Virus record (IMG/VR): IMGVR_UViG_3300000318_000081
Location: 1-58,513 of that record
Reading direction: 5' to 3' (one strand)
Origin: a virus
Lineage: Duplodnaviria > Caudoviricetes
DNA: 58,513 bases
Shown here: positions 3,800 through 29,600 of the stretch, one piece after another
Layout: every line of letters begins with the position of its first letter
Numbering within the stretch: position 1 is the stretch's first letter
The notes under the pieces: model-generated
What the model saw: the letters and a program-made list of their open reading frames with translations, nothing else
Told to the model about the DNA's origin: nothing
The model's database searches: none
Program-made: the position numbers and the translations under genes

Positions 3800-3860
3800 C
3801 AAATATAGTCGAACTTTACTATTTATAATACTTTCTAAATAAAAAGTTTTCCACAATTTT
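3800..3860 (-). promoter_or_regulatory. DnaA-box promoter copy A
   Basis: Minus strand TGTGGAAAA (3855-3847), ATTTAGAA-agta-TTATAAAT, TATATTTG (3807-3800); near-identical to 15864-15925. Confidence 0.8.
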
Positions 3861-5952
3861 AAAAACTGCTCTCATTTACGACTCTTCTTCTAACTGGAGC
3901 GTGAGTTATTTCGATTATTCTTGGAATAGGTAAAGTATAACAGATATGATTTCCGATCATTCGAGTAATCAATATATCATCATGGGCCCCCAATTTAGCA
4001 CCGAACGAACCATTTTTCTTCTTCTCGAATACTCTAGCTTCGTTTAATGCTTCTTCTGATCTTTCTTTGTATCCGCGCTCTCTCAAAGAGGCAACATAAT
4101 CATCGATGATCATTGTCTTTGTTGAGGTGTTCATGTGGAAGCCATAAACGACCGCTTCACCTTCAATAATTTTATCAGCCGGGGTTCGAGAATAAAGGTT
4201 ATCATAGAATTCTGCAATTGTATCAAAGATAAATTCCGTGTGATCTCCTTCGTTTTTCTCGGTATCGTGTGTGTTACTTTCAATTACTAATAAAGCATGA
4301 TTGTAATAAACGGCTATTTGTGTACTGATCCAGACCAAAAGGTCATGATCAATATGGCCTTTCCATTCGGCCACTACTTCCGGCTTACCTCCGTACATCA
4401 TCCAATAACGATCAAAAACAGTTATTACAGAATAATCCGCTTTTTCACTCCGGCCTCCGGTGTCAACAACAACTACATATCGATCTGATATTTTTTCCAG
4501 TTCCGGAAAGTTCCATATTTTTAGTTTGTTTCGTTCTTTTATATTCCTAGTCTTTGTATCTGAGGTAGTAAATCCTTCTAAAGCTACTCGATCCTCGGTA
4601 AACTTTACGTTCAATAATACTTCTTTTCTTTTCGATGGGAATAGTTTAGCCGTTGAAGGATTACAATCTCCTGATATGTCCCCAATGGCTGTCGGGAATC
4701 GGCAGTCTTTTCTTAAAGCTTCTACATCTTCAGCTCTAAACACTGGTTGACCTGAGTCTTGGAAGGCTTCAATATCATCACTGGGAAACTCTTGTTTCAT
4801 CAATGAATGTGATGTCATTTCCGACAACTTCCCTCTGTACCAATTAATATTTTCTAAGGTACATTCAATATGATTGATAAATAGATTTGTTTCGTATTCG
4901 GTAAATGTCTTTATGAAATCACTTATTGATCCTTTTACTTTTCTTCCTCTGTGATTATAATACGTTCCATCAAATGGCTCTCTATACATATCAATCAGGT
5001 ACCACGGAACAAATACAGGATCAAAAACAGATTCACCGTTTTTAGATTTTTGCCACTCAGTATGAAAGAAGTCTCCAACTCCTTTGGCAGTACTTTCATA
5101 AGCAACTAACGTAAGCGGAACGCGGGGGATCGAGCCGACAATAGATGAAATCAAATCATCTGTCTTCTTCATTTCCGTATTAGGATAAAGGCCGACTTCC
5201 GAAAAGTGGACCATCTTTGCATCTTGTGACCGGACACTCTCCGGGGTTTCTGCAGAACCTACGGTTATTCTACATCCACGGCCGCTTAGAATCTTGATAT
5301 TTTGAGTTCCTTCAAATGGTTTTAATTCGTACCGTTCATCACAAATAGGTATCATTTTAGAAACGACAAGTGAAAACATCGCTCGAATGTTTATGGCCGC
5401 TTGGTTTACATGGGCGCAAATTACGCTATTCCAGTTCTTTTTATGGATGGTTTGAATCCAGTGCATGTAAAGCTGAATCAAAGTTGAGCCTCCCCACTGG
5501 CGGGCCTTTAGAAGTATTACGCGGATAGGAGAACCGGATACTCTCATTTTCTCTAACCGGTCTAATAACCTTCTTTGTCCTCTGTTTATTTTAAATAGGA
5601 TCGGATCGGCCGTTACTTTATCAAAGATTGTATCACAAGTAATAGCAAAGTATTCAAAATCAAATTTATATCTGGTTTCACAGAATTCTATCCAAAATCT
5701 ATCTATAAATCCTTGTGCTGTATCTTCTTTTGATGCTTCGAGTAATTTTTTAATGGAACCATATTTGAGAAGTTTCTTACAAACGTCTAATTTCATCATT
5801 GGCTTAGGCAGGTACAACAAAGGTAAGGGCGCATCCTCTATACAGATTTGCACCCTTTCCCCTTGACATCCTTCTCCTGTAACCGGATTATAAGGTTTGT
5901 CTATTTGTTTATGTCTTTGGGTATTCTCTAATATGATTTCATTTGTATCCAA
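3859..5952 (-). CDS. terL: Terminase large subunit
   Basis: LLKARQWGGST Walker A, HFSEVG Walker B, ESTAKG, VVVVDTGG..DYS and HDD nuclease motifs. Confidence 0.93.
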   Translation of the reverse strand: MDTNEIILENTQRHKQIDKPYNPVTGEGCQGERVQICIEDAPLPLLYLPKPMMKLDVCKKLLKYGSIKKLLEASKEDTAQGFIDRFWIEFCETRYKFDFEYFAITCDTIFDKVTADPILFKINRGQRRLLDRLEKMRVSGSPIRVILLKARQWGGSTLIQLYMHWIQTIHKKNWNSVICAHVNQAAINIRAMFSLVVSKMIPICDERYELKPFEGTQNIKILSGRGCRITVGSAETPESVRSQDAKMVHFSEVGLYPNTEMKKTDDLISSIVGSIPRVPLTLVAYESTAKGVGDFFHTEWQKSKNGESVFDPVFVPWYLIDMYREPFDGTYYNHRGRKVKGSISDFIKTFTEYETNLFINHIECTLENINWYRGKLSEMTSHSLMKQEFPSDDIEAFQDSGQPVFRAEDVEALRKDCRFPTAIGDISGDCNPSTAKLFPSKRKEVLLNVKFTEDRVALEGFTTSDTKTRNIKERNKLKIWNFPELEKISDRYVVVVDTGGRSEKADYSVITVFDRYWMMYGGKPEVVAEWKGHIDHDLLVWISTQIAVYYNHALLVIESNTHDTEKNEGDHTEFIFDTIAEFYDNLYSRTPADKIIEGEAVVYGFHMNTSTKTMIIDDYVASLRERGYKERSEEALNEARVFEKKKNGSFGAKLGAHDDILITRMIGNHICYTLPIPRIIEITHAPVRRRVVNESSF

Positions 5953-6540
5953 TTATCGTAAAATAAAAAACGTAATCAAACTTCCAATTCCGGCAAACAG
6001 CCATTTTGTATTCTTTCCTTTGTTAGCCTTTACTAAAGACTTACTCAGTCCATCACTTATAGCAATCTGTTTTGTATAGGCATTTCCAACAGTCAAAGCA
6101 ATTGAATCTATTGCCTGCTTTTGATTGTGGCACTCGGCTAATTGAATTGAATCAGATACACTCTTTCTTACTAAACTGTCAGAATATCGTTTCTGTGCAA
6201 CTATAGCACTATCGCAATCAGGTGTCAGGTCTGAATCTTTCAGGGCTTTAGTTACTTTTTTTTCAGAATCGGCTTTTTGCCATTTTATAACCGGCTTTAA
6301 TCCGTCTGAAATTTTCTTTTGAGCTACTTCTAACGCCTTTGAAATTTCGGCTTTGTCAGATAAAAATTTGGTTGTCAAATCAGTTTTCTGTTTATTGAGT
6401 TTTGTGTCAACATCCGATTGCGTTATCACCTTGTCTGTTTTATTTCCAGAGAAGTAAGATATTATTCCTACTGAAAGTAATATTCCTACTGCCAGACATA
6501 TTACAGCAACTTTCCAATGTAATTTAATGTACTCTTTCAT
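5953..6540 (-). CDS. Spanin-like membrane protein (candidate)
   Basis: Hydrophobic segments at both termini, helical middle, directly after the endolysin. Confidence 0.5.
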   Translation of the reverse strand: MKEYIKLHWKVAVICLAVGILLSVGIISYFSGNKTDKVITQSDVDTKLNKQKTDLTTKFLSDKAEISKALEVAQKKISDGLKPVIKWQKADSEKKVTKALKDSDLTPDCDSAIVAQKRYSDSLVRKSVSDSIQLAECHNQKQAIDSIALTVGNAYTKQIAISDGLSKSLVKANKGKNTKWLFAGIGSLITFFILR

Positions 6541-6546
6541 GGTTTT

Positions 6547-7053
6547 TTATTTTGTAAAAAATTGTAGAACTGATTTCGTTGCCAGGATAGCTTCTGATTT
6601 GCGTCTGAATTGCAAACCGAGCTTTGGTACTCCCTGACCAGTTATATAGTGTGTAGTCCACCAATCATAAAGAGCCGGGCTATTTGTATTTACCAACTGA
6701 ATCAAGTCGTGGCTTCCGCCTGTATTCATTGTGTGACAAACTAATGCAGCATAAAGGTTGTCAGATACCTTGGCTGTGAGATGGCGATGAATAAATAGTT
6801 CAGCCGTTTGATTGTCGATTACGAGTTGCGCGTCAGCCTGCGCCGGCGTATGAATTTTAGATAGAGAATACGCGAGTTTCTTATTTTCTATCCCTTTGAT
6901 GAAATTTCCCTTTGAATCGACCATCGCATGCCCCCAACCCTCAGTCCAAATTCCACAACAGTCCATTTTGGGCTGCAATCCTATGAGAGTCAAATCGCCA
7001 TCATTCAAAGATTCATAATGCTCTTCGAGTTGTAATCCATTATTATTTATCAT
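6547..7053 (-). CDS. Endolysin, GH24 lysozyme
   Basis: E...DCCGIWTEGWGH and GLQFRRKSEA motifs. Confidence 0.85.
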   Translation of the reverse strand: MINNNGLQLEEHYESLNDGDLTLIGLQPKMDCCGIWTEGWGHAMVDSKGNFIKGIENKKLAYSLSKIHTPAQADAQLVIDNQTAELFIHRHLTAKVSDNLYAALVCHTMNTGGSHDLIQLVNTNSPALYDWWTTHYITGQGVPKLGLQFRRKSEAILATKSVLQFFTK

Positions 7054-7273
7054 CTTCTTGTTCTTTATAGCTCTGAGCCCACGCTATTACAGCGATTAAA
7101 ACAGAGCTGATATACCAAATACTTTGCGTGAACCAATCGGGTGGATTCCCTAATGCGCCTCTTGAAATAGCCCCAGCTATAAATAATGCAGCTACAGCAA
7201 TATTCCTTATCCGTTTCTTTTTTAATGGAGTGGGGGACATGAAATTACCCCACCATGTTTTTAGTTTATTCAT
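7043..7273 (-). CDS. Small two-TM protein (holin/antiholin candidate)
   Basis: 76 aa, two hydrophobic helices, between holin and endolysin. Confidence 0.55.
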   Translation of the reverse strand: MNKLKTWWGNFMSPTPLKKKRIRNIAVAALFIAGAISRGALGNPPDWFTQSIWYISSVLIAVIAWAQSYKEQEDDK

Positions 7274-7830
7274 TGTTTACCTTTCTTTTTTAAAGTCTTA
7301 TTCTCCTTGTTCGTTTTCATCTTTTCCTTAAATACTTCTTTAGATGCAAGAATCTCTTCAACCTCACTTTCGCTTATTCCTAACTTTGTTGCGACCTCGC
7401 CTTTGAGTGGGATCATAATTGCTTTAAAGAATACAAAATTCGGTTTTAGGATAAGTCCATTTGCAGCAATACTTATCAATTCAACTACAGCAGCTATAGC
7501 GAAACTAAACAAAAGCCCATACACTGTGTGTGTTCCTAGTGTAGTTTCGAATAAGTAAACTGAAGCAAACCAAATAGTATAAAATAGAACTTTCCAACCA
7601 GTCTCGCGCCCTAGATATGACTGTGTGTAATCACCTCGTTTTTTAGCTACTAAAACCCCCAAGACTGCATCTAAAAATATGATTGCTAGAATTGCATAAT
7701 AGATGTACAATGCCGGATGAAAGTAGGCCAGAATAGAAGTTGCAATAACGCTCACCCAACCCCAAGTTTTCGACAAAATGTCTACCGCCTTATCAGCAGT
7801 TTTTATGGCTATTTTTAGTAGATTATCCAT
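7270..7830 (-). CDS. Holin (phage holin family 4-like)
   Basis: IIFLDAVLGV..S..G..K...Y and ELISIAAN patterns; several TM helices; basic C-tail. Confidence 0.78.
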   Translation of the reverse strand: MDNLLKIAIKTADKAVDILSKTWGWVSVIATSILAYFHPALYIYYAILAIIFLDAVLGVLVAKKRGDYTQSYLGRETGWKVLFYTIWFASVYLFETTLGTHTVYGLLFSFAIAAVVELISIAANGLILKPNFVFFKAIMIPLKGEVATKLGISESEVEEILASKEVFKEKMKTNKENKTLKKKGKQ

Positions 7831-12425: not shown

Positions 12426-13127
12426 TTATTGTTTTACTGTTGCGTTTGTTCCTTTCAAAGAAATAAGTCCGGGGAGCATCGCTTCGGCTCTTGCTTCAAG
12501 TGCTGCTGCAATGGTTGGCTTTTCTAATATGGTAAAGACAGTTGCAGCCGATAAATAAGCCAAAGGAGCTATGATCTGATCGCTTATTCCTAAATCATAA
12601 TCATCGGATTTGTCTTTTAAGTCAGCTACAGTCGGAACATATATAGCTGTATCAATCAAATGTGCTGTAAGCCCTTTTTGAAGAGAATAATAGTATAATA
12701 CCGGAGTAATTACACCATCGACATCAACGTTGTCAATAACTACGGCCGGGCGCATGGTAGAACCTCTCGTCCATTCATTAGATTGCATATTTGCAACCCT
12801 CGAATTATTTAAAGCTGCTTCCATAGCTGCAACTTTCCATCCATTCATTTTGAATTTAGAAAGCAGATAGAAATCTGTTGGCAGTGCAACATATCCGGTC
12901 CCGTCAGTAAGATTAGGGACAGGTACACTTGCAGTGAAGCTTTTATTTCCGAGCCAAGTCCTTGGTGCGACTTTAGCTACCCGTCTCCATGCATCAACAT
13001 AAGAACCTTCGATTAGTCTATCAATTCCAACTGCATCGGCACCCACAAATGAGTTTCCTGCTGCATCGTAAAGACCGGGTTCATTCATTACTGACATTAC
13101 CCTACTTGTAAATTCTGACTTTATCAT
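12426..13127 (-). CDS. Putative head-tail adaptor / ring protein
   Basis: GYVALPTDF motif; position between capsid and fibre genes. Confidence 0.55.
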   Translation of the reverse strand: MIKSEFTSRVMSVMNEPGLYDAAGNSFVGADAVGIDRLIEGSYVDAWRRVAKVAPRTWLGNKSFTASVPVPNLTDGTGYVALPTDFYLLSKFKMNGWKVAAMEAALNNSRVANMQSNEWTRGSTMRPAVVIDNVDVDGVITPVLYYYSLQKGLTAHLIDTAIYVPTVADLKDKSDDYDLGISDQIIAPLAYLSAATVFTILEKPTIAAALEARAEAMLPGLISLKGTNATVKQ

Positions 13128-13566: not shown

Positions 13567-14952
13567 TTAGGCGGCTACTTGAGGGAATAACTCAACACGG
13601 ATATGAGCATTTGGATTCTGCAATACAAGTGCTGATTCTTCAGATATTGTACGAGCATCTACGTTTCTTTCACCCGATTTTCTCAAATCAAGATCAGTAG
13701 CTTTCAATTCTCCGATAGAATACTTACGTAAAAAGTCTGTATCTACGATCAAACCCGAATTAGTCATTTCATTTTCATCAAATGATTCATCGTGAATAAC
13801 CCATAGTGTACCGAAATTTGTGGTAATTTCTTTGAAGGTAAGACCGTATTTCACGAAGGTCGTTGCTGCATCTTTTTGATTAGTACCGTAATTGATTAAA
13901 GATAGATTTGTCATCAATCCTGATCCTACATAGAAAATCTTTTCTTTATTACCTGCATTACCGGTGAATGCTGCTTCTGTCAATTTTACTAATTCAGCGA
14001 AGGTAATTTGTGTTACTCCTTGAGAACCATAAGTAAAATCTTTACCAGCTTGCCAGTAGATACCACCAGTCATATAAACATCATTGCTATCATCATCCTG
14101 AACAATACCCATTGCACCAATCAAAAAGTTCTTATTCATTCCTCGTGTCATATCGAAGATGGCTTCTTGTTCTTGGTCATTAAATGTCCAATCAACTTGC
14201 TTATTGGCAATCTTTTCTAATGTAGATTGTTCAATCTGACATTTAAAGTTTTGTAGATATTGGATAGTAGGAGTTGGCAGGTTTGCAAATTTTCCTGTTT
14301 GAATATCAAACTCATTATGAGCGCGACCAGCACGTATAATGATAGAATTTGCAGGGAGCGAAGGCATTCCGATTACGTTACCAATTTTCTTTCCGTTTAC
14401 TGGCTTGATTACTAATTTTTTATCATTAGTTTTCGAAGTGATATAGCACATCAAGAATTGTTTAGTCTGAGTAACACCGTCTTTTTTATATCCGGGAACT
14501 CCAGGAAAGAAAATGGTTTCTTTTGCTGAAAAAATTGCATTGTTATTGGTATCAATAGTTGCATTAATATCAGCATTTCCTCCTGCGGCTTCTTCAGCAT
14601 AAGCCGTTTTCAAAGTAGTCTTTACTGGCAAAACATCGGTAGAGAAGTACTCTTGTACACGTGATGTAGCTGATTTTCGAGCGACAAACCGCGAAGTTGT
14701 GGCCAGTGGATTACCCATAGGTCGAATAACGACAACTTTCCTTTCAATGTCGTTAAGGTTTAAACCGGGTACTAACGACCGCGTAGCTTGATCTGAACTA
14801 ATCTCGTCAACCTGAACAAGACCAAGACCACCGTCTGGAGTTACTACATCGGCAGTCATGGCAGAAGCACCGCCTACGCCAAATAATGAACACATAAGCA
14901 ATACTAATATCATTAGTAATCCGCTGTCCTTAAAGCTAAATTTCTTTTTCAT
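13567..14952 (-). CDS. Major capsid protein with N-terminal signal/TM segment
   Basis: Follows the scaffold-like gene and precedes a terminator; QYLQNFK, YMTGGI, ITTNFGTLWVIHD, LVLQNPNAH resemble HK97-fold capsids; N-term MKKK + 20 hydrophobic residues + ASA. Confidence 0.78.
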   Translation of the reverse strand: MKKKFSFKDSGLLMILVLLMCSLFGVGGASAMTADVVTPDGGLGLVQVDEISSDQATRSLVPGLNLNDIERKVVVIRPMGNPLATTSRFVARKSATSRVQEYFSTDVLPVKTTLKTAYAEEAAGGNADINATIDTNNNAIFSAKETIFFPGVPGYKKDGVTQTKQFLMCYITSKTNDKKLVIKPVNGKKIGNVIGMPSLPANSIIIRAGRAHNEFDIQTGKFANLPTPTIQYLQNFKCQIEQSTLEKIANKQVDWTFNDQEQEAIFDMTRGMNKNFLIGAMGIVQDDDSNDVYMTGGIYWQAGKDFTYGSQGVTQITFAELVKLTEAAFTGNAGNKEKIFYVGSGLMTNLSLINYGTNQKDAATTFVKYGLTFKEITTNFGTLWVIHDESFDENEMTNSGLIVDTDFLRKYSIGELKATDLDLRKSGERNVDARTISEESALVLQNPNAHIRVELFPQVAA

Positions 14953-14975
14953 TGTTTTGTTTTTAAAATTATTAA

Positions 14976-15767
14976 TTATCGTTTACCGGGGAAGCCACTG
15001 AAGAAGTTGCCACCGTTTTGTACTTGTGTTTTTACTGGAATTACTTTCCCTGCACCGGTTCCGTTTCCGAGGTCTGGCATTGGTGCCTTAGAAATATTTT
15101 TCATCTTATTGTCGATAACTTGATTCTTTCCTTCAACTAAACCAGTATCGGCAGCATCTTGAATATCCTTATCATAAGTATTTCCTTTGTCGATCACCGC
15201 CCAGTTATCTTTTGAAATAATACCATTAAGCATATTGTCGGCAAGGTCGAATCCTTTGCCCCGGATGATTCCTTTTTCTGCATCCGTTTTATTATTATCG
15301 GTACAATATTTATCGAGTGCGGTCATTGACTTTTCAATGTTTTTTGAAGCCTGTTCCTGTAATTTTTGACTTTCAGCCATTTTAGCAAGGTTCTCTTGAT
15401 AGCCTTTTTCAAATTCTTCGGCTTCATCTCCTTCTAATCCTTGTCCATCTTTTCCAAATACCTTTCCATAGGCGTAAGGAATAGATTTTGGATCATCTCC
15501 GGCAAACATTGACAGGAACGCACCTGCTTTTGGGTCTTGGGATACTCGCGCAGCCAATCGAGAATTTGAGTCACGATGTTTTGTAAGCTCAGCATCTTTG
15601 GCCGAATATTGAGCATGGGCATCATCGAATAGTTGGTCATCGTTTGCAGGTGCATAATCAGGATTTTGAGCCTGCATTATTGCCATGAATGCAGCGCGAC
15701 CTTTTGGAGTTTGATTAGCTTCTTTCGCTGCTTCTGCTGTTGGTTCTTTTTCGTCTTTGGTAGCCAT
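14976..15767 (-). CDS. Putative capsid scaffolding protein
   Basis: Charged helical 263-aa protein immediately upstream of the capsid gene, P/G-rich C-tail. Confidence 0.65.
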   Translation of the reverse strand: MATKDEKEPTAEAAKEANQTPKGRAAFMAIMQAQNPDYAPANDDQLFDDAHAQYSAKDAELTKHRDSNSRLAARVSQDPKAGAFLSMFAGDDPKSIPYAYGKVFGKDGQGLEGDEAEEFEKGYQENLAKMAESQKLQEQASKNIEKSMTALDKYCTDNNKTDAEKGIIRGKGFDLADNMLNGIISKDNWAVIDKGNTYDKDIQDAADTGLVEGKNQVIDNKMKNISKAPMPDLGNGTGAGKVIPVKTQVQNGGNFFSGFPGKR

Positions 15768-15811
15768 AATATTTTAATTTGAGAATCAAATGTTTATTTT
15801 TAATCAAAGCA

Positions 15812-15856
15812 CAAAAAAACTCAATTAAAATAGGCTTGTTAGCACTTGACGCTAAA
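15812..15856 (-). promoter_or_regulatory. Putative late promoter 1 (scaffold/capsid)
   Basis: TTTAGCGTCAAG (15856-15845)-N22-GAGTTTTTTTG. Confidence 0.72.
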
Positions 15857-15863
15857 ACGATTA

Positions 15864-15925
15864 AAAATTGTGGAAAACTTTTTATTTAGAAAGAGTTCTA
15901 AATAGTTCAAGAACCTTTATCTTTG
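15864..15925 (+). promoter_or_regulatory. DnaA-box promoter copy B
   Basis: TGTGGAAAA 15869-15877; ATTTAGAA-agag-TTCTAAAT 15884-15903; TATCTTTG 15918-15925. Confidence 0.82.
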
Positions 15926-15947
15926 AAGAAAAAAACAGGAATAGTCT

Positions 15948-16385
15948 ATGAAATTGTTTTATCAAGAGGATCGAGATAATGACTTTTATAATGTTTGTGA
16001 ACGCATTAGGGGACAGAACCCCGGATACATATCGGTATCAGATATAGTAAAACAAGCAATCTACTGTGAAGCAGAATCCTTTTATCTTTCCGAATTAATA
16101 ATAGCAAGGATGATTGATAAAATAAAGAAAGGAGAAAAGCCGACTACTAAAAAGGAAGCAAAACAAGAGCTTTATAAGGAGATAGAAAAAAGATTTAGAG
16201 AATTGGATCAGTCTTTATCTTCAATTAAACAGGGTAAATTAATCGACCAACAGACAGCACCAAGGTTCTACATTTCAGAGACAAGAGCTACATGTTTATA
16301 TTATGACTTACTAAAATCAAAACGCAAAGAAAATGCAATACGCAATCGTGCTCGTGTTCTTAATAGTTTTTTCCGTCTTCAATAA
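15948..16385 (+). CDS. Hypothetical protein with an internal duplication, possible DNA-binding regulator
   Basis: Two related motifs EAESFYLSE and TAPRFYISE; basic and helical. Confidence 0.6.
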   Translation: MKLFYQEDRDNDFYNVCERIRGQNPGYISVSDIVKQAIYCEAESFYLSELIIARMIDKIKKGEKPTTKKEAKQELYKEIEKRFRELDQSLSSIKQGKLIDQQTAPRFYISETRATCLYYDLLKSKRKENAIRNRARVLNSFFRLQ

Positions 16386-16914
16386 CGGAGGCTATACAGA
16401 CTCTTCAGCTTTTTACACTCATTTCACGTACATGTTCCAACATCAAAACATTGTACATCTAATTTTGAACTCATTGTCTTTTATCGGAATGTTCCGGTTA
16501 ATGAAAAGGTTCATCAACAAATACACTTTACTATTTACAATCATTCTTATAGGCTTCTTTGCATCGTTCTTGTCAGAGTATGAATTACCTACCGTCGGGG
16601 CTTCTTCAATGATCTACGCTTTAATAGGCCTATTCTTCGGGATGGTTACTTTTGGAAAGTTGAAAGTAACTGACAAAAGACAGTTTTTAATTTTTATCGG
16701 GACTATAACGGCATCATTTTTAATAAGCCTTTTGAAACATAACAGTAATACCTTGGTTCACTTCTATTCTTTATTGATGGGGATTATGTGTTTTTGGGTA
16801 GGTAAAATAAATCTTCGGAAATTATTTAAAAGAGATGATGACATAAAGTTGATTCTTGTGAAATATGAACAAAAACTATTTATAAAATATGAAAAAACTA
16901 ACAACGGGGGATAA
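16333..16914 (+). CDS. Rhomboid-family intramembrane serine protease (minimal)
   Basis: FTYMFQHQNIVHLILN, TVGASSMIY (catalytic Ser), LVHFYSLLMG (catalytic His), multiple TM helices. Confidence 0.85.
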   Translation: MQYAIVLVFLIVFSVFNNGGYTDSSAFYTHFTYMFQHQNIVHLILNSLSFIGMFRLMKRFINKYTLLFTIILIGFFASFLSEYELPTVGASSMIYALIGLFFGMVTFGKLKVTDKRQFLIFIGTITASFLISLLKHNSNTLVHFYSLLMGIMCFWVGKINLRKLFKRDDDIKLILVKYEQKLFIKYEKTNNGG

Positions 16915-17086
16915 TATTGTATCCTCTCAATTTCCGGAATCTATTCAAAAAAAGTATCCATTTATGGACTTTGCAACTTTTGAAGAGTATTATCAAAATA
17001 AAGCGGTATTCCGTTTCGATATACCAGAGTCAGAAAGACTGACATTCAACGGGTCCCGCGTTGGGAGATTTATAACAGAGTTATGA
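16889..17086 (+). CDS. Hypothetical protein
   Basis: 65 aa, overlaps neighbouring ORFs in an operon. Confidence 0.5.
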   Translation: MKKLTTGDNIVSSQFPESIQKKYPFMDFATFEEYYQNKAVFRFDIPESERLTFNGSRVGRFITEL

Positions 17087-17322
17087 AAGAAGTAACACCC
17101 CAAATAATACAATTAGATAATTCTGAAAGAGAAACTATCAAAATGTTAGAACTTCAATTAAAAATGATGTATGACATAACCGGAATTCCAAAAGAACTAT
17201 TTGGAAGCCCAGCTGAGAGTTTCAATTGTAGTATACGAAACGAACGTTACATTAAATTATTTGAACAAAATAACTCTTTAAAAAAACCTCTCACTGTACA
17301 GGCAAGTGACATTAAATTATGA
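17083..17322 (+). CDS. Hypothetical protein
   Basis: 79 aa, 4-nt overlaps with neighbours. Confidence 0.6.
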   Translation: MKEVTPQIIQLDNSERETIKMLELQLKMMYDITGIPKELFGSPAESFNCSIRNERYIKLFEQNNSLKKPLTVQASDIKL

Positions 17323-17672
17323 AAAAGTTTTTAAAATGTTTCTGGGTTTGTATTTTAGAATTAGGATTGACTATATGCATGGTCATATGTACAATTAATT
17401 CAAGTGGCCGCTGCGAAGCAATAGCTTCTTTTGTTGCTGGCATGGCCTTTATCCAATTTGTAGAACACCTTATTTATGGAATTCGAGATTATTATTACGA
17501 TAATATTGAAGAAGATGATGACGAAGCGAAAACAATAAGTATAAATGTTGAATCTCCATATATTAGAACGTGGTGTATTGAACAAGCATTAAAATCTTCA
17601 CAAGTAGGATGTGTAGTTGAAATAGCTAAGGGAATTGAGAATTATGTAACAAATGCAGATAAAAGTGAATAA
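17319..17672 (+). CDS. Hypothetical membrane protein
   Basis: Two N-terminal hydrophobic helices and an acidic linker. Confidence 0.6.
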   Translation: MKKFLKCFWVCILELGLTICMVICTINSSGRCEAIASFVAGMAFIQFVEHLIYGIRDYYYDNIEEDDDEAKTISINVESPYIRTWCIEQALKSSQVGCVVEIAKGIENYVTNADKSE

Positions 17673-17676
17673 AAGC

Positions 17677-18135
17677 ATGAAAAGATATTTAGGAGTAAAG
17701 ATTATTGGAGCAATTCCAATGACAAGATTAGAATACAATGTTTTTCGTGGGTGGAAGTTGTCGGAAGATGAAAACGGAGCCGATGAGGGGTTTTTAGTGG
17801 AGTATGAACCTAACGGTAATCCGAATACAAAAGAGTATAAAGGTTATGTGTCTTGGTCTCCCTATGGCGTATTCCATGAAGCATATCGAGAAACTACCGG
17901 TTTGAATTTCGGACTTGCAATTGAAGCATTGAAAAAAGGTTACAAAGTGGCTCGTACTGGTTGGAATGGAAAAGGTATGTGGCTTAAATACATGAATGGA
18001 AAAAATGGTGAATTACCGCGTGGTTCAAAATATTTACTCCCTTTTATTGGCATGAAAACATCTGATGATGGATTTGTTCCATGGCTTGCAAGTCAAACGG
18101 ATATTCTCGCTGAGGATTGGGAAATTGTAGGATAA
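17677..18135 (+). CDS. tad2: Tad2/DUF2829 anti-defence sponge fused to an N-terminal SWSP domain
   Basis: LNFGLAIEALKKGYKVARTGWNGKGMWL...PWLASQTDILAEDW; N-domain YLGVK..AIPM...GFLVEY...GYVSWSP..VF..AY. Confidence 0.82.
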   Translation: MKRYLGVKIIGAIPMTRLEYNVFRGWKLSEDENGADEGFLVEYEPNGNPNTKEYKGYVSWSPYGVFHEAYRETTGLNFGLAIEALKKGYKVARTGWNGKGMWLKYMNGKNGELPRGSKYLLPFIGMKTSDDGFVPWLASQTDILAEDWEIVG

Positions 18136-19583: not shown

Positions 19584-21584
19584 TTATTGTTGTTCTGTAC
19601 GTAATTGTTGAACGCCTGGTTGTGCCTGCGAACCAACCGGTTGAGCCTGTTGTGGTGTTTGTTGAGCCTGTTGTCCTGCTTGAATTTGTTGTTGAACATC
19701 AGGAGGAACAACTTGTCCCATTGGCTGTTGTTGTGCCGCTGCTTGTTTATTTGATTCAATACTTTGAAGTAACTTATCTGCGAATGGAAATGCCCCTGTT
19801 TTTAGTAACTCTTCAATACTTATTTGACCGGCATTGAAAATTTGCATCAAAAAATCATTCATGATCATTCTGTATGCCGGAGTAGCTGTACTTTCTGCAA
19901 TAGATAAGTCAAATTCAGCGTTTCGTACTTCATCTGGAGTATAAACGACATTCTTTGCATCTTGGCCAACAAGATTAATGTATCTTGTATCCTCCCACGA
20001 TTGTTGCACCAGTTTAAGGTTTTTCAAATCTCTTGTTTCCCTCAAATCTCGGAACGATTCAAACATATCAGTTAATGAAGTCTGCGAGTTCTGAGTTTGC
20101 TGCATGAATAGAGAAGCAGGAGTTCCGGCACTTGGTGCTTGGCCCTGTAGTGAACCTTGTACTCCGCTGACATCTTCCAACATTTTAAGTTGGACGTTAA
20201 GCATGTCATACAACCCAGTTTGAGAAGAGTTTGTTATTACTTGTTTTGGTGCATCTACTCCGGGCTTCGGAACATAATACATCACGCTGTCATACTGTGC
20301 CCATTGATCTGCGTAATCATCTTCACTAATATTGTCTGGTTTAGAACCAACAGGCATCATAAGTACTCCTTTGGCCGAAGCCTTAGAAATAAAATCCTGC
20401 ATGGTAATGATCCGGTTTATATATCGTTGTTGGTCGATGAAATCGCCTACAAATGGATATACCCGACCATTATAGAAAGGATAAATTTTTAATGAGTATG
20501 GATGTGAATCATGCCAGTAAGGTGTTTCACCCTCTTTCAATACTTCACCGGTTGGAGTTTGAAAATAATAGTACCAATAGTTGTCAACGAACCATTTGTA
20601 CTCAATAAGCTTCATGTTTTCCGGTGTGATACCTTGTTGTGTTTGTTCCTTTAGACGAATAGCATTTTCTGTTTTCAGCACCAGTTCGTCCGTGAGTTCT
20701 GCCTTGTAGTATTCACCAGTTAACCGGTCATGAACCTGTAATCTAGCTTTTGATTCTTTTCTCCATGTAGATATTACCCGGCACTGTGTTTCATCTTCTG
20801 GAATAAAGAAGTTTCTATTCTGCGTTCTATCCCTTGTTAGGTTTTCAATCCATGAAACTTGGCGTTCTGAATTTTGGTTGGCATATAGTAGTCGTATTTC
20901 TTCTGCTTTTTCTTTTGATCCATCAGCAAATTGGGCCATTACATCATATAATCCCATGTCTGAAATCTCACCTATTAAATGACAATCCCAATGGCGAGGG
21001 TCTTTCATGTGGTTATCAAAGAAAATGTCGTTGTAATTTGGAAGATAAGTCCAGACATCATATTTACCATCTCTCCAGCCATAAGTACTCCTGAAAATAG
21101 AAACACCGGTTATAAGAAAGTATTCTAATGCTCTTCGGTCAAGTTCCCAAAGTTTATTCTCCTGATATACATATTGAATAGCTGCCGACATTGTCTCGCC
21201 TTTGCTCTGGTCGTCTCTGTTCCTTGATACGCAAACAGGTTCAGTCTGTTGACCAGAAAAAACGCCTAAAACGCTTCGGACAATACCTCTAATTCTATTG
21301 TTTTGAAGCGGGACATTACCCTTTTGGATTATGCGTTGCCGTTCTGTAATAGAACCCTTTCCATCGTTATGATCTTCCTTATCTCCCCATTGGTCTGAGA
21401 AAGTGTACCTTTCATTCCGAAAGGCGTTCCGTCTAAACTCATCTAACCCTGACCAAGCACGAAATGAGTCTTCAAGTACCTGAAGGTTTCTATTAAAAGA
21501 GTCCGTATTTTTTACGGTATCAATTTTAGGTTTAGCGGGATATAGTTTGGATGCTAGTTTTAGGTTCTGCTGTCTCATATTCAC
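19584..21584 (-). CDS. Portal protein (P22-like)
   Basis: Y..DQW, PLQNNRI, FIDQQRYINR, SAKGVL, VSGVQGSLQG, Q-rich C-tail. Confidence 0.87.
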   Translation of the reverse strand: MNMRQQNLKLASKLYPAKPKIDTVKNTDSFNRNLQVLEDSFRAWSGLDEFRRNAFRNERYTFSDQWGDKEDHNDGKGSITERQRIIQKGNVPLQNNRIRGIVRSVLGVFSGQQTEPVCVSRNRDDQSKGETMSAAIQYVYQENKLWELDRRALEYFLITGVSIFRSTYGWRDGKYDVWTYLPNYNDIFFDNHMKDPRHWDCHLIGEISDMGLYDVMAQFADGSKEKAEEIRLLYANQNSERQVSWIENLTRDRTQNRNFFIPEDETQCRVISTWRKESKARLQVHDRLTGEYYKAELTDELVLKTENAIRLKEQTQQGITPENMKLIEYKWFVDNYWYYYFQTPTGEVLKEGETPYWHDSHPYSLKIYPFYNGRVYPFVGDFIDQQRYINRIITMQDFISKASAKGVLMMPVGSKPDNISEDDYADQWAQYDSVMYYVPKPGVDAPKQVITNSSQTGLYDMLNVQLKMLEDVSGVQGSLQGQAPSAGTPASLFMQQTQNSQTSLTDMFESFRDLRETRDLKNLKLVQQSWEDTRYINLVGQDAKNVVYTPDEVRNAEFDLSIAESTATPAYRMIMNDFLMQIFNAGQISIEELLKTGAFPFADKLLQSIESNKQAAAQQQPMGQVVPPDVQQQIQAGQQAQQTPQQAQPVGSQAQPGVQQLRTEQQ

Positions 21585-23256: not shown

Positions 23257-23293
23257 AGAAAGCCACTTGAAATTAATCAAGTGGCTTTTTTTT
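23257..23293. terminator. Bidirectional terminator
   Basis: AAAGCCACTTGA-AATTAA-TCAAGTGGCTTT followed by a T run. Confidence 0.85.
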
Positions 23294-23612
23294 ATCTTCT
23301 AAAGTTGGTAATATCTATTTGTGTCGGGGGAACGTAGTCGCGCTTTGTCATCCAGTAATAAACGATATTCTTTTCATTCACATAGAGCATCTTGTAGTCG
23401 TAGTAAGCCTTTCCAGTTCCATACACAGAGCCTTGAAAAGCATAAACAAGTATTGTCCCCGTTCCGCCGTCTGATGTAGTCCGAGCCGGCGGGCCCCATT
23501 TCAATATAACTTCTTTCTGAGTATGCCCAAGCCAGGTATTCATCGCATCTCTTGTGCTAACACAAGACATTAAGAATAAAACAAATAGCACTACTATAAG
23601 TCTGCTTTTCAT
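23292..23612 (-). CDS. Small lipoprotein moron
   Basis: MKSRLIVVLFVLFLMS-C lipobox; WGPP motif; own promoter and terminator. Confidence 0.75.
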   Translation of the reverse strand: MKSRLIVVLFVLFLMSCVSTRDAMNTWLGHTQKEVILKWGPPARTTSDGGTGTILVYAFQGSVYGTGKAYYDYKMLYVNEKNIVYYWMTKRDYVPPTQIDITNFRR

Positions 23613-23635
23613 ATATTGTATTATTAATTGATCCA

Positions 23636-23663
23636 CAAATGTAAGTATAATTGATAAAACAAA
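23636..23663 (-). promoter_or_regulatory. Primary-sigma promoter of the lipoprotein gene
   Basis: Minus strand TTTG (23663-23660) and TACATTTG (23643-23636). Confidence 0.6.
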
Positions 23664-23688
23664 CATTATTTTATTAATTATTAATTAT

Positions 23689-26600
23689 TTATTCTGCTGC
23701 ATCATCTACCAAATCACCGTCATAGTTTATGTTCTGACTCTTTTTAAATACGACATTATCCACTTTAGGTTTTCTATGTTTATTATTGCTTATACCATTC
23801 TTTTCAGCAAATGCAGATACTTCATTTGGGTTATTACTCAAATCCTTTGATTCAGCCAGTGCCTTTTCCCGACTTTCAATTAATTGCTGTATCTCTGCTT
23901 GTTTTACAGGATCAGTACTATAACTCTTCATATCTGATTCAGCATCCTTAATATCCTTGATGATTCTTTCTTGAACTACATGTTTGAATGTGTTCATCTT
24001 CATGAATTTTTGTTGTTGCTCTGATATGGTCAAAGGGTCAGCTCCCGATTTGTATAATTCATTCGCCTTCTCTTGAATTCCACTAAGAATGATATTTGTA
24101 TTTTTAACCTCTGCTTCTACTGCTTTCACCTTAATGTCATTGGGGTTTGGCATTTTTTCCGAAGAAACATTAAAACCTAAACCTCTTGTCATTGCGGTGA
24201 ATCCATCCATTTCACCTTGTAGCATGTTAGTAATACCTTGTATTGGAACTGGTATCATTCTTCTTATTTCAGAAAGGAGAAACGATGGCATCTCATTTAT
24301 TTGAACTGCTCCAGTATCATAAGGTTTTCCATATTTTGTAAACTCTCCGGTCATTCTTCCACCTTTTGGGTCTCCAATATGTATTCCTTTTTTCGGAATA
24401 CTTCTTGCATAAAGTCCTTTATCATCTATCCCTAGTAATTCATCTATTGTTGTGAATCGTTTCCCTTGCCAATCCTTCCCTGTGAGCCCATCAAGTGCAA
24501 TACTTGTCATTATACTAGCTTTGTGTTTTAATGATGTTGCAGGGTCAATAATCCACTTAATTGGGTCTTTGAAGTGTCCAAGTATTGAGAAGTAGTCTTC
24601 TTCATTTTCCGGCATTTCCTTTCCCAGAAGTTTATGGATAGATTCATTAATAGGCGTAATGTCTGCATCTAAGAAATGAGATTTAGCAACAAAATCACGT
24701 ATAGTATTGAATCCAGTCAAGAAAGAAGCATCATCCCAATCAAAGTTCAATAGTGGTTGAATTATTTTAGTGTATAGTTTCTCAACTTCATTCCAATAAG
24801 TATCTTCGGCATCTGAATCTTTATGATTTAGTAATGCCCAAGGTGCCGCAATTGCCAAAGACCAGAACGTACTTGTCAAGGCAGATTTAAGTAATGACTT
24901 TCCTAAAACCTTTTGATACATTTGTCTTTCGTGTTTTTCATAGTCTTTCGAACCTTTTTGTTCTTTGGAATAATCCCAACCAAAAGCCTTTACAAGAGTT
25001 TTAATGTTTGATTCCGTCCAGTCAGTTGCTAACAATGTCAATCTTGTAAGGTGTTGCATCGTTTTATTTCTGCCCATTCTTTCAAGATTTAAACCTCCGA
25101 AAAGATTATTCATCATCTCACCAACTCTTTTTGCAATAAGATTAGGGTCTTCATCTGGGAACATCTGTACTTGCTTGTTGTACTCTAATACTCCAGACTT
25201 GACTTTTAGTCCTAGTCCAAATTGTTTAAACAAGAAATCGGTTTGTGTTTTATGCAAATCCATTATTTTGTCTGAAATAGACTTTGTAACTTTCGCTTTG
25301 TCAAGTATTTTTGTGATGAAATTTTTTTGTTCAACTAAATCTTCCTGCCAGTCTTGAACTCTACCAAGTGTCATTCCATTTCTAATGAGTGTTTCAACTT
25401 CAGGAGACATATTCATAAACATATCTAGCCCGGCTTTATACGCTCTCATAGGATTGCTGTCAGCTATATTTTCTTTAGAGGCTGCAAATAGATAAGCTCT
25501 TGTAAATGCTTGATGATGATAGAATGAGAAAGAAAGCATTGTTGTCTTTGCAATAGCATTGAACTTAGTTAGGCCATCTATGAAAGGAAGTCCATTCAAT
25601 TTTGATTCACCAAGAACATTATTCAACTTATCGGCAATAGGAGCAGGGGCATATACTTTCTTTTTCTCAAATATCTTTCCATCTTTATCAACGGCCCAGT
25701 TTTCACCACGTAGATCAATACTTGAATCAACATTCTTTTGTTGTACCCATTTTCTAAAATTTGGGTGTTTTATTTCTTTGTAACCGGTTTCATTATCAAG
25801 TCTAAATAAAGGAACTCCGTTTGAAGCAAATGTTTTAAGTCCTGCATTCATTAGTTGTTTATTGGCAATTACAGCATGAATTTCATCTCTCAATGCTTGT
25901 AAGTTGTTTGTTGCACCTGCTGTTTTAAGGTTCAACCCTCCGGCCTGTCCTTCTAAAATACTTCCTAACTTACGTTGTTTTGCATGAGATGTAGAAGTAG
26001 AGAACTTTGCCCAGAAGTCTTTTGTGTTTTCTCCGCCTGATAAGTCCCATGTTCTTCTAACATAATTATCAATTATGTTACCTATTACTTCTTCATCGAG
26101 TGCAGATTGTCCTAGCTTTACGTATTCTTCATTGATTTTATCGGCTACTTCTATTTGCTCAGGAGTTAAGTTTTGAGCTATATCGGCAATCCGTTTTTGT
26201 TCATCGGTCAATTCAGGATAGTATTTTTTGTATGCTTCTGGATCATTCTTCATATCATTATAGATATGAATGGCTTTGTCAATATCTTTCCAATTTACAT
26301 CCGTACCCTTCACAGAATCCTTAAGCTTAGTTTGAAGTTTAATTGTGTCAGACATAGCTTTAGCGTTCTCTACATCTTTATTTCCAAACCAATCGTTCTC
26401 AATTTCATTGTATAACTTTCTCAATTCTGGAATATCATTCTGCACAATTTCATCTTTAACCTCTTTTACCCCGGATAATATAATTCTGTGACGTTTCTTT
26501 TCTGCCGGTTCAAGACTGTTATTGATCGCCTGAATTTCCTTGAAGTACTCTTGTTTTGCTTTTCGATAATCGCTCATTGATTTACCAGCGTAATCGGATA

Positions 26601-29600
26601 CTTTCGGCATTTTCATACCTTCAACCTTTTCTTTAGCTACATCGGCTTTCTTAGCCTCTTTCTTAGAGCCTTTCTTTAGTTCTTCGTAGTATTTAACCGT
26701 ATCTTCTGAAAACTTCAGTACATCACCGTCATAGTCTTTGTAATCGGGCTTATTGATAAGGGTTGATCGCTTATACGTTGGAGATTCTTGTTTGTTTTCA
26801 ACTTCATCTAAGAATTTCTGTCTGTTATCAGGGTTTTTGAAGAAGAATCCATTTTGAATATTATCGGCTTTGTTTTGATAACTGCTGTAATTTCCACCAT
26901 GTTTTTTTGCTATTGCTAATGTAGCCTTATAATCAGAGATAGATTTCTTCGATTTTGCCATAAACATAGCCTCACCAGTCTTGCTATTGTTCTGATCGAA
27001 TACGTCATAGTTACTTGTTTCAGATACTTCGTTACTTACTTCTGGAATAGGTTCATGTTCTATAACTTGTTTTTCTCCACTTCGTGGTGTAATATTCATA
27101 TCTTCAATCTCTGAAAATAGATCATTTACATTCTTTGAATCTGAAAGATCAATGTTTTCAGTTCGTGGTATTGAATCAAGTTGTTTCTGTAATTCTGTTT
27201 GAACTTTACTTGTCAGTTCATCTTCTAAAATATATGGATTATTCCGTTTTATTTCCTGTTTAATAGAGAATTCGCTTTGTTGTTCGATCTTATCAATAAC
27301 AACTATTCTTGTATTTATTGCTGTACCTGCCTGTTCAAAGGCAATAGAAGGAAGTTTAATTGAAGCAATCAAATGGGCAGTAGGATGTAATAGTTTTCCT
27401 TTATCATCTTCTCCATTTAAAAACTTATCCAAACGCTTATCGGCTTGTCCTTGTGGAATTATAGCTACAATACGGCCATTATTATGAAGATGTTCAAATG
27501 CCTTCTCTACATGATCTATTGCAGTTTTACCTCCACTTCCAAAAGGAGGGTTCATAGCTATGCCATGATATTTGTTTACAACATTATGATTCTCGAATAT
27601 ATCGTTGATTATTTTTCTGTTTCCACCACCAGCGCGCGCATTAAGTTTGGAAAACAAAGAATATGAAGGCTCGATAACTGTTGCATTAGCCTTCTCAGGA
27701 AACCACATTGCAATAGCTCCGTGACCGGCTGACGGTTCCATAACCGATTCACCTGGATTAATGTCTAACCATTCAACCATCTTTTGACCTAATGGTTCTG
27801 CAGTCGCGTAATAGTCTTTGCCTTGTCTTGAATCTCTACTACCTCTATTCTTTTGATTACTATCATATATCAACATGGCTTTTTTAAACTCAGTCATGTC
27901 TAATTGAGTAGCTTTTTTATCGTATTCTTTTCCTCCGACTCCTTGTTCTTTGTTGGGTTTATCCTTTCCAGAATTGAATAAGACTCCTTCAGCAAATGAC
28001 CGCAATAAATCTCTAGCTTGACTCCCGATAGCTAAATTCTCAGTAGTAGAAAGTTTCTTGTTTATCTTTTGGCCAAAATCGGCTATTTCCATATCCAATC
28101 CTAAGAGTGGATTTTCAAACACGGCATTAGTAGCTTGTCCAATTCTATAAACACGACCTTCAATTTGTAGCGCTGTAGTGGATGAAATAGGCAACGAAAG
28201 GTTTATAAGTACGCGTTGATGTTCTCCACTTGTATCATGTAAACTGATTCCTTCTTTTCCGGCTTCTTCTTGAATAACAATTATGTCTTTCCCTGAATTA
28301 TCATCATTGAACTTAACAATGTTCCCTGATTTGTCTTTTTTAGCTGTATCTCCATTAATGAATACTACCTTACCGGGGAATGCACTATTAAGCTGATCAA
28401 TGGCCGGATCATAGTTTAATGTCTGTTCAAACTTCAATAATTCAGAATATTTTATTTTGAAGTCTTCAATCTGGTTCTTTACATTTTCAAGGTTTTCTTT
28501 CGCTTCATCGACTTTATAAGCACTTGCAATGGCTAATCCCATTTTCTCATGCGCTTTAATCAGTGAATTGTCCAAAATCATTTGGAATGGCGGTGCCACA
28601 TTGGCTTGTTTTCTCCTGTGGAATACAACAACCTTTCTACCTAAGTCTAAATGATCCTGAATGCGAGGAATAACCATTGAGGCGCGCAATGACTCCAATA
28701 GTTTAGTTGTGTAGTTATAATCATAAAACACTTCTCTTGCAGCTTCATTCAATCCCTTAAATAAAGGGTTTTCTCTATAATTGAAAATGTCATTGAATGC
28801 CTTATTGAAGTCTTCTGAATGGTCCAGTGCCACAAGTGGAAATTCTCTTGAATAATCTTTGTCACTTTCAAGTGCTCTACCTGACATTGCACCCTGAGCC
28901 ATCAACTTGTCTGCAAATTCAACCTCTTGCATTGCGATTGCTTCCGCATTGGCTTTGGACTTAGATTGAAGTTGGTTATTCTTCCATTCATAGGCTGATC
29001 CGAAGTTATCCATAAAGAATCTTCCTTCCGGATTAACGCGACTCATTCCTACACTTTTTTGTTCGTAAGTTGTTTCATCACCCCAATCAAATAGGGAGTG
29101 ATTAGCATATCTAAGATTAAAGTGTCCTTTGAATGGTGTTGCCGATAAGAAAACAACCTTTGTATTGTCGAACGCTTTTTGTGCACGCTCTTCTAATTTC
29201 GGCTTTATTTTGGTGTCATACTGCTCTTGAAGTTTCTTTTCTTCTTCAGAAGGTTCTACGCCGTGTTCTCTTTCTTCTTGTAACTCTCGTAATTTTAAAT
29301 AGTGGGGATCAACAGACTGAATACGATTAAATGCCTGTTGTTTTGTCACATTGGATGTTTCATAATGCGTATAAGTGGTAGATGATGCCTTTCCGCTCTT
29401 TTCTTCCATTAAACGATGTGACTCATCGTACATAACAAGATCAAAATCTCTTGTTTTAAGCGCGTTATTTGAACGAAAGTTCGCGTATGTAGTAATTACG
29501 GCATTCTTACCTTTATCTTTTGTAGATAGAATAGGAGTGATGTCTAAACCAATGTTTCGTCCATCTGATACCCAATCATTTATTTTTGGTTCAGAAGGAA

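Follow-up and report, generated by a model that had tools for sequence, protein, structure and literature searches.

A signal-peptide-like leader on the major capsid protein of Bacteroidales phages and the phage-encoded rhomboid beside it

The prohead proteases HK97 gp4, T4 gp21 and T5 pb11 trim major capsid proteins (MCPs) of the HK97 fold by taking off an N-terminal delta domain or propeptide, and the capsid proteins of tailed phages are textbook cytoplasmic proteins. The T4 prohead initiates at the inner membrane, to which the gp20 portal is tethered via gp40, and is a precedent for tailed-phage head assembly that starts on the cytoplasmic face of this membrane. Here we analyze a 58.5-kb stretch of DNA, the virus record of a temperate Bacteroidales phage (IMG/VR record IMGVR_UViG_3300000318_000081, 58,513 nucleotides, hereafter the window), in which the MCP precursor (13567..14952, minus strand) begins with a conserved leader that resembles a signal peptide, and a gene on the opposite strand encodes a predicted rhomboid intramembrane serine protease (16333..16914, plus strand). 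The pairing of leader-bearing MCP and rhomboid is old and has been inherited vertically across two deep clades of Bacteroidales phages.

As in the prohead protease systems, the head locus contains a phage protease gene next to the gene of an MCP whose N-terminal extension is dispensable. Unlike the prohead proteases, which are soluble, have the herpesvirus-protease fold or are ClpP-like, and are packaged in the procapsid, the candidate described here is an intramembrane serine protease with six transmembrane (TM) helices, and the extension of the MCP would be a membrane-targeting leader whose cleavage we infer. T4 uses a separate membrane protein to anchor its portal and has a soluble MCP; in the window phage the hydrophobic segment is part of the MCP. 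The leader also differs from what is usually seen in secretion: unlike the passengers of Sec and lipoprotein signals, the MCP must end in the cytoplasm for DNA packaging, and unlike usual signal peptides, the leader is more conserved in sequence and is followed by a long disordered linker.

The phage rhomboid shares its fold and catalytic motifs with GlpG of E. coli and AarA of Providencia stuartii, from which it is set apart by its size, as phage rhomboids of this family are 147-210 amino acids (aa) long, have a short L1 loop and carry no extra domain. AarA is described as removing a short N-terminal extension of TatA, thereby activating this small membrane protein (PMC3712462). By analogy, AarA and TatA would be the nearest functional parallel, that is, maturation by removal of the N-terminus; unlike TatA, the proposed MCP leader substrate is predicted to lie with its N-terminus inside the cell (N-in). 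Taken as a whole, the leader-MCP and rhomboid pair would work most like a prohead protease and its propeptide, and stands outside any described family of capsid-maturation proteases. We found neither a phage-encoded rhomboid nor an MCP with a signal leader described in the literature that we searched. The words "rhomboid", "transmembrane" and "mass spectrometry" do not occur in the available part of the paper on the TP phages, cultured relatives introduced below (its supplementary tables, which may hold virion proteomics, lie outside this scope), nor do "virus" or "phage" in the available part of a 2025 review of rhomboids.

The capsid leader and the compact rhomboid

The 461-aa product of 13567..14952 is a member of the SU10_MCP family and has an HK97 fold. 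It matches Pfam SU10_MCP (PF17236, E 5.8e-34) and phrog_26635 (E 3.7e-66, the alignment starting at residue 3), and its AlphaFold2 model, with a predicted local distance difference test score (pLDDT) of 75.5, consists of a helix at residues 11-23, a disordered stretch at residues 25-50 (pLDDT <50) and the HK97 fold beyond. The best Foldseek matches of this model in the PDB are phage capsids, namely VP1 (9in6, E 5e-21), phicrAss001 (7qof), SU10 (7z45) and HK97 (1ohg), in agreement with the HK97 fold that an earlier note on this DNA had proposed to confirm by such a search. A portal, a putative scaffold and a weak adaptor match nearby provide the context of a head module. In current annotation MCPs of this kind carry the labels DUF5309 or DUF2951.

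The open reading frame (ORF) starts exactly as the earlier note had written it, its N-terminus reading MKKKFSFKDSGLLMILVLLMCSLFGVGGASAM. Based on sequence, the predicted helix 11-23 and conservation, the leader comprises residues 1-34 (14851..14952, minus strand), with a basic n-region (1-10), a hydrophobic core (11-27) and a small/polar c-region that ends in A-M-T-A34 before D35. The core reaches a 15-residue Kyte-Doolittle mean of 2.9 after a basic stretch, and is only ~15-17 residues long in the window MCP compared to 20-22 in many relatives. A flexible linker rich in Gly, Thr and Asp, roughly residues 35-60 (14773..14850, minus strand) and disordered in the model, joins the leader to the HK97 body; it is of low complexity and its length varies among homologues.

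When a leader is defined by a Kyte-Doolittle mean that reaches 1.9 over 15 residues within the first 80 residues, 111 of the 118 full-length MCP homologues have one (120 homologues were listed, at 38-79% identity), and a comparable hydrophobic window beyond the first 80 residues is found in none of the 118. Among 38 homologues of clade A, the clade of the window, C21 is kept in 35, G25 and A34 in all, D28 in 31 and D/E35 in 36. The consensus of this clade runs MK..., F/L-K-D/E-S/G-G, a hydrophobic core with C21, G25, then D28, A-M-T-A34 and D/E35, and the motif of the c-region across the clade is (A/V)-M-T-A34 before D/E35. In the cultured relatives TP3 and TP4 the predicted end of the leader follows V-M-M-A. 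As judged from these alignments, the position-specific conservation of the leader exceeds that expected of a generic signal peptide.

The earlier note had pointed out that its reading would fall if translation started downstream of the hydrophobic segment. We rejected a start at Met32, the Met after the leader, because this residue is not conserved, being L or I in 8 of the 38 clade-A homologues, while the upstream 31 codons are conserved as protein. The first ATG of the MCP is preceded by an A-rich stretch and lies 23 nt past the stop codon of the scaffold gene.

In a wider set of 102 dereplicated Bacteroidales phage lineages 95 have the leader, cultured gut phages included, and the leaderless ones are six with informative flanks and one without. 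Natural leaderless MCPs (P0062, P0102, P0105/6, L012, L050, L109, L176, L178, L182 and L185-7) begin at or just past the end of the leader, indicating that the capsid body does not need it, a pattern whose fit, as far as sequences tell, is with a removable propeptide. A distant environmental MCP clade (L340-L346 of IMG/VR, 28-32% identical to the window MCP) likewise begins with a hydrophobic leader, in the absence of a rhomboid, and the leader is therefore older than the Bacteroidales gut clades.

The rhomboid gene encodes a predicted 193-aa protease with six TM helices and a basic C-terminal helix. It matches Pfam Rhomboid (PF01694, E 5.9e-11, 43.2 bits versus a cut-off of 22.6), and a profile of 26 homologues matches GlpG in the PDB (E 3.8e-6). 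H42 and N46 of the HxxxN motif, G89-A-S91 and H143 are invariant or nearly so in alignments of 16 and 26 homologues, the residues listed as invariant being H42, S47, G89, S91 and H143; in the dereplicated phage rhomboids GxS is found in 33/33 and HxxxN in 32/33. In the AlphaFold2 model (pLDDT 85.4) helices span residues 2-16, 40-58, 63-80, 89-107, 115-134 and 140-158, and the top 37 PDB hits of this model in Foldseek are all GlpG or iRhom (TM-score ~0.6, best E 1.4e-3). By every sequence and fold criterion that can be tested the protein is a predicted member of family S54, and proteolytic activity is predicted accordingly by homology and model; the compact rhomboid of the earlier note, with catalytic Ser (S91) and His (H143) retained, is the one we find. 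By the positive-inside rule the basic loops 55-63 and 108-116 and the C-tail are predicted to be cytoplasmic and the active site periplasmic, as is usual.

A recent capture of the gene from the host was considered and rejected. BLASTP against one host rhomboid of a Bacteroides metagenome-assembled genome (MAG) gave E 0.11, and the tandem partner of this rhomboid matched locally over no more than 21 residues (E 0.004); as there is no significant full-length likeness to these Bacteroides-MAG host rhomboids, the phage gene is not a recent acquisition from them. Host rhomboids in the Bacteroidales genomes G011-G020 are mostly adjacent tandem pairs, one of ~240-260 aa beside one of ~300-350 aa. A tblastn search with a Bacteroides host rhomboid picked up two uncultured megaphages of ~635 kb as well as Ralstonia phage YO382_2 and, in part, a Staphylococcus Kay-type phage (records LR745206.1, LR756502.1, ON170356.1 and OR844995.1, all unannotated), and by these matches other phages may encode unrelated rhomboids.

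Co-occurrence of leader and rhomboid

The loci compared were those of three cultured phages, 29 IMG/VR, 80 metagenome and 80 species-genome loci found via the MCP, and 66 IMG/VR loci found via the rhomboid, to which a query with a TP-clade MCP added 80 and a query with a clade-A MCP yielded 20, 12 of them already in the set. All were scanned with hidden Markov models built from alignments A1 and A2. A full-length MCP was present in 312 loci, which dereplicated at 90% to 102 rows. A flank was taken as informative if at least 3 kb upstream were available, and the rhomboid was sought within 8-10 kb of the capsid gene.

Leader and rhomboid were found together in 161 loci (33 dereplicated), and a leader without a rhomboid within the flank in 89 (46 dereplicated), with another 43 leader loci (16) whose flank was too short. 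Leaderless MCPs lacked the rhomboid in 13 loci (6 dereplicated) and had too short a flank in six (1 dereplicated), and the combination of a leaderless MCP with a rhomboid did not occur in any locus or lineage. Every rhomboid-bearing lineage, 33/33 dereplicated and 161/161 loci, thus has a leader on its MCP. Of the 66 IMG/VR loci that were found through the rhomboid alone, 65 have an oppositely oriented leader-MCP gene at a distance of 1.3-4 kb, the contig of the 66th being too short. The cultured relatives BF1-TP2, BKO1-TP3 and BS-TP4, whose MCPs are 32-35% identical to that of the window, all three have the same synteny.

MCP trees (IQ-TREE in quick mode on 61 rows and FastTree on 102 rows) resolve three groups. 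The 102-row tree includes only MCPs of at least 400 aa in which a [KV][IVM]RP motif occurs within residues 1-200, and L193-L195, L200, L201 and L340-L346 are absent from it as drawn; both leader and rhomboid are present in L193-L195, L200 and L201. The rhomboid is found in 13/13 rows of the TP-phage clade and in 19 of the 25 rows of clade A, of which three are uninformative and three, L012, L050 (leaderless) and L169, have none, whereas clade B has it in none of 63 rows, 49 of them informative. L210 forms a long separate branch and has the rhomboid. Taken together, the rhomboid-bearing clades comprise 39 rows, 36 of them informative, and 33 of these have both features. The sole leaderless lineage inside the rhomboid clades (L012/L050) is also without a rhomboid, including in a 46.5-kb record with terminal repeats. 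Pairwise identities of rhomboids and MCPs are correlated (Mantel r 0.85, a value that none of 999 permutations reached), a co-divergence that is expected of any vertically inherited neighbour and discriminates neither way.

BLAST clustering of the ORFs of 47 loci revealed no other family that is universal to the rhomboid-bearing loci and absent elsewhere. The same comparison, in which several of the upstream flanks were host DNA, found no specific protease family that takes the place of the rhomboid in the relatives without it. On these sequence comparisons the MCP is the only conserved candidate substrate of the rhomboid.

One record was set aside as a counter-example. L277 of IMG/VR, which is rated 100% complete, has a TP4-like MCP with a leader identical to that of TP4, no rhomboid and no adjacent terminase-like gene; its TerS-like/rhomboid/terminase-like block is replaced by unrelated genes on the same strand. 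As the terminase-like gene next to the site of the rhomboid is also absent, this contig is probably chimeric or fragmentary despite its estimated completeness.

Proposed cleavage of the leader and competing explanations

The leader is laid out as a Sec signal, with a basic n-region, a hydrophobic h-region and a c-region of small residues. The earlier note had remarked on its resemblance to a substrate of signal peptidase I (SPase I). A29-x-A31 is present in ~26 of the 38 clade-A leaders, and M32-T-A34 fits 38/38 if M, L or I is allowed at -3. In 10 of the 38 residue 31 is V or I, neither of which SPase I is known to accept at -1. At the end of the h-region the window leader has no match to the PROSITE-like lipobox pattern [LIVMFWSTAG]2-[LIVMFYSTAGCQ]-[AGS]-C, its Cys21 following Leu-Met, whereas lipobox-like matches are found in 26 of 58 clade-B, 1 of 23 clade-A and 3 of 13 TP-clade leaders. 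The clade-B lipoboxes (for example in L037, L046, L092, L170 and L183) read, among others, LILGGC, LLISC and ILASC, and on paper the capsid protein there resembles a lipoprotein precursor. K2, K4 and K8 before the core and D28 and D/E35 after it predict an N-in/C-out topology. G25 is an invariant helix breaker.

Known rhomboid substrates are described as N-out/C-in (PMC2941825), and the substrate motif as a small residue at P1, hydrophobic ones at P4 and P2', that at P4 being large, and helix-destabilising residues (Strisovsky et al. 2009; PMC2941825). Candidate sites in the leader are L19-L-C-S22 / L-F24, F7-K-D-S10 / G-L12 and A31-M-T-A34 / D-V36, the last with a small P4, and none of them stands out. 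A structure prediction for a complex between the rhomboid (26-row alignment) and the first 60 residues of the MCP (38-row alignment) scored 0.02 against a mark of 0.32; it was run without controls and is not used either way.

We tentatively favour a reading to which we give somewhat less than an even chance, namely that the MCP carries a cleavable membrane-targeting leader that comes off at the periplasmic face, through the phage rhomboid in lineages that have it and through host enzymes in the others. The leader would target the nascent MCP to the inner membrane and insert N-in, and the conserved c-region, (A/V)-M-T-A34 before D/E35, would sit at the periplasmic face, on the side to which the active site of the rhomboid is predicted to open. 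Once the rhomboid had cut the leader off, the new N-terminus and the linker would fall back into the cytoplasm, where the HK97 body would assemble on the scaffold, and the rhomboid would be the phage's own leader-removing maturation protease. In relatives without a rhomboid, host rhomboids, SPase I or, for leaders with a lipobox, signal peptidase II (SPase II) would do the same job. How a cytoplasmic protein could expose its leader to a periplasmic enzyme is a matter of speculation: in an abortive insertion hairpin the leader would span the membrane, the disordered linker would return through the translocon, and after the c-region is cut the N-terminus would slip back. The broader proposition, that Bacteroidales podophages and prophages route their MCP through a secretion-type insertion, where an abortive hairpin is clipped periplasmically by SPase I, SPase II or a rhomboid of phage or host origin, the clipping timing or localising capsid assembly at the membrane, we regard as doubtful, though worth stating. 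This large group is reported to include gut phages found in about one third of the metaviromes of one cohort (PMC12694917).

Several observations weigh against cleavage of the leader by the rhomboid. Of the 79 dereplicated leader lineages with informative flanks 46, one whole clade among them, have no rhomboid near the capsid gene, and the leader therefore does not depend on the phage rhomboid; the co-occurrence foreseen in the earlier note is true of every rhomboid, each of which lies beside a leader MCP, and fails for more than half of the leaders. In L010, L011 and L018 of clade B, the terminase-like gene comes immediately after the 145-aa gene. Eight host genomes of clade-B prophages, searched whole, contain only distant host-type rhomboids of 239-318 aa, mostly as tandem pairs on other contigs, three being possibly on the prophage contig with coordinates ~90-130 kb apart, nor was a phage-encoded one found in the four near-complete virus records that were likewise searched whole; records rated 93%, 100% and 88% complete have none. 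Within clade A there is one apparent counter-example, L169 from a Tannerella MAG: its 24-kb contig encodes an MCP with a clade-A-type leader and no rhomboid, and the entire TerS-like operon is missing at this place. The phylogenetic signal suggested by these sequences is thin, amounting to about two events of rhomboid gain or loss, only one of which matches a loss of the leader, while the other goes together with a leader of changed design in clade B, its basic n-region being longer and its core followed by a Cys. Moreover, the branch of L012/L050 is long, and its inner placement has a support of 81-93%, compared to 99% for the enclosing clade.

The predicted topology adds to these points. The leader would fail the N-out/C-in orientation of a canonical rhomboid substrate, and by analogy its cleavage by a rhomboid would need loop-back binding, a mode that for the type II substrate Star is only proposed (PMC2941825). 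In its composition the leader reads as an ordinary secretory signal, for which host signal peptidases could suffice, and membrane targeting, removal of the leader, the identity of the cutting enzyme and the position of the cut are all steps that we infer from sequence. The central suggestion of the earlier note, release of the capsid precursor by the phage rhomboid, thus retains the co-occurrence and the co-divergence in its favour and meets with an orientation opposite to that of canonical substrates and with a leader more widespread than its supposed protease.

It is conceivable that the leader is removed by host SPase I in clade A and by SPase II from lipobox leaders, and that the rhomboid, rather than making this cut, clears cut leaders or stranded precursor from the membrane in a signal-peptide-peptidase or quality-control role, or adds capacity. 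The n/h/c Sec layout, A29-x-A31 and the invariant A34 with M, L or I at -3 speak for such a division of labour, as do the 26 of 58 clade-B leaders that end in a PROSITE-like lipobox and the 46 dereplicated lineages that manage without a phage rhomboid, and the mismatch in orientation vanishes if the rhomboid acts on a freed N-in peptide or on something else. This explanation remains strong because the hairpin scheme would, again speculatively, suit SPase I or SPase II equally well. Yet V or I occupies position 31 in 10 of 38 leaders and only the A34 site fits all 38, and to our knowledge bacterial rhomboids do not serve as signal-peptide peptidases, a job done by SppA and RseP. The joint loss in L012/L050 is likewise left unexplained unless the only job of the rhomboid concerns the leader, which would still tie it to the MCP. 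On balance we hold removal by host signal peptidases to be a real though rather doubtful possibility.

That the rhomboid has nothing to do with the MCP seems to us unlikely. It would then lie beside the capsid genes only as a member of the terminase operon and cut a host membrane protein or another phage membrane protein, to time lysis via holin or spanin, to exclude superinfection or to disable a membrane-bound defence effector. Its place between TerS-like and terminase-like genes in the TP phages, the Tad2-like anti-defence gene in the operon of the window, the other TM proteins of the phage (at 7270-7830, the holin, 5953-6540, 7043-7273 and 17319-17672) and the existence of leader MCPs without a rhomboid are all compatible with this, but no other TM protein family is common to all rhomboid-bearing loci, lysis genes are also found in rhomboid-less relatives, and both the joint absence in L012/L050 and the one-way co-occurrence in 33/33 lineages would be coincidence. 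Still less probable is a hydrophobic N-terminus that is never inserted into the membrane and serves instead in assembly, for example by packing on the scaffold within the procapsid like a short delta domain, and is either retained in the particle or processed by a protease that escaped recognition. N-terminal assembly domains are common in HK97-type MCPs, and a core of ~15-17 residues is short for a TM helix. However, a Kyte-Doolittle window of 2.9 after a basic stretch is a classic signature of membrane targeting, many relatives have cores of 20-22 residues and lipoboxes, leaderless lineages assemble without a hydrophobic N-terminus, and the conserved rhomboid would be left unexplained.

Genomic context and implications

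As the earlier note had described, the rhomboid operon is divergent from the genes of the putative scaffold and the MCP. The putative scaffolding protein (14976..15767, minus strand, 263 aa), which lies upstream of the MCP with a 23-nt gap, is named from its position and composition; it matches phrog_22323, whose function is unassigned, has no Pfam match, and its family is present in 43 of the 47 compared loci. The intergenic region between the two operons (15768..15947) has one TAnnTTTG match, at 15918-15925 on the plus strand, 23 nt ahead of the ATG at 15948. We take TAnnTTTG to be the Bacteroides-type promoter consensus; it is not enriched in the window (65 found versus 76 expected), and the match is not informative.

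The operon opens with a 145-aa protein (15948..16385, plus strand; phrog_27246, unassigned function), by its position a candidate small terminase (TerS-like). The 3' end of its ORF overlaps that of the rhomboid by 53 nt in a different frame, as it does by 40-43 nt in all three TP phages, an arrangement that may reflect translational coupling. In the TP phages the gene order is TerS-like gene, rhomboid and terminase-like gene, and in rhomboid-less relatives the 145-aa homologue lies directly upstream of the terminase-like gene of ~660-700 aa. The rest of the window operon (16889..18135, plus strand), defined by ORFs, TM scan and Pfam, consists of three small ORFs of 65, 79 and 117 aa, the last (17319-17672) with an N-terminal TM segment, and a Tad2-like (anti-Thoeris) protein at its end (17653-18135, plus strand; PF11195, E 6.9e-27). 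Neither the small ORFs nor the Tad2-like gene are conserved beside the rhomboid in the TP phages.

Within the morphogenesis module the TM scan picked out the MCP alone, portal and scaffold having no TM segment. Other small proteins with a hydrophobic N-terminus are encoded at 17319-17672 (plus strand) and, on the minus strand, at 5953-6540 (a 195-aa spanin-like protein with an N-terminal TM segment), 7043-7273 (76 aa) and 23292-23666 (124 aa, with a lipobox-like LFLMSC); by their sequences they are possible alternative substrates of the rhomboid.

The window further encodes an integrase (1546-2769), a 697-aa ORF with a terminase PHROG match (3859-5952), a lysozyme (6547-7053), the holin (7270-7830), an SU10_adaptor candidate (12426-13127; a weak Pfam match, E 0.0017, below the cut-off) and a P22-type portal (19584-21584; Pfam P22_portal, E 2.7e-36). 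A 3953-aa polyvalent protein (23689-35550, minus strand) contains InPase, ART-PolyVal (ADP-ribosyltransferase) and several helicase/ResIII domains. Relatives of the phage in species genomes are all found in Bacteroidales MAGs or isolates. In line with the earlier note, which had recognised no conventional prohead protease, none of the families S49/ClpP, U9/U35 and S77/S78/S80 was found among 26 window ORFs scanned with Pfam and 18 with PHROGs, the two sets overlapping and ~35 ORFs of at least 100 aa in the replication half (38-58 kb) lying outside the scans. As P22-like scaffold-dependent podophages need no prohead protease, its absence is not unusual in itself.

A conserved signal-peptide-like leader on an HK97-fold MCP is unexpected in itself, and the sequences give hints of an undescribed membrane step in capsid maturation. 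While removal of a propeptide by a phage protease is of a known kind, the membrane route would be categorically new if confirmed. Were the rhomboid to remove the leader, it would represent a new class of capsid-maturation protease and the first viral intramembrane one, this would be the first function assigned to a virus-encoded rhomboid, and the pair would add to the few rhomboids of bacterial type whose natural substrate is clear, a point on which this family has long had a gap. Were host signal peptidases to make the cut instead, capsid assembly in these phages would depend on the envelope machinery of the host, which would matter for host range and for how gut viromes are annotated.

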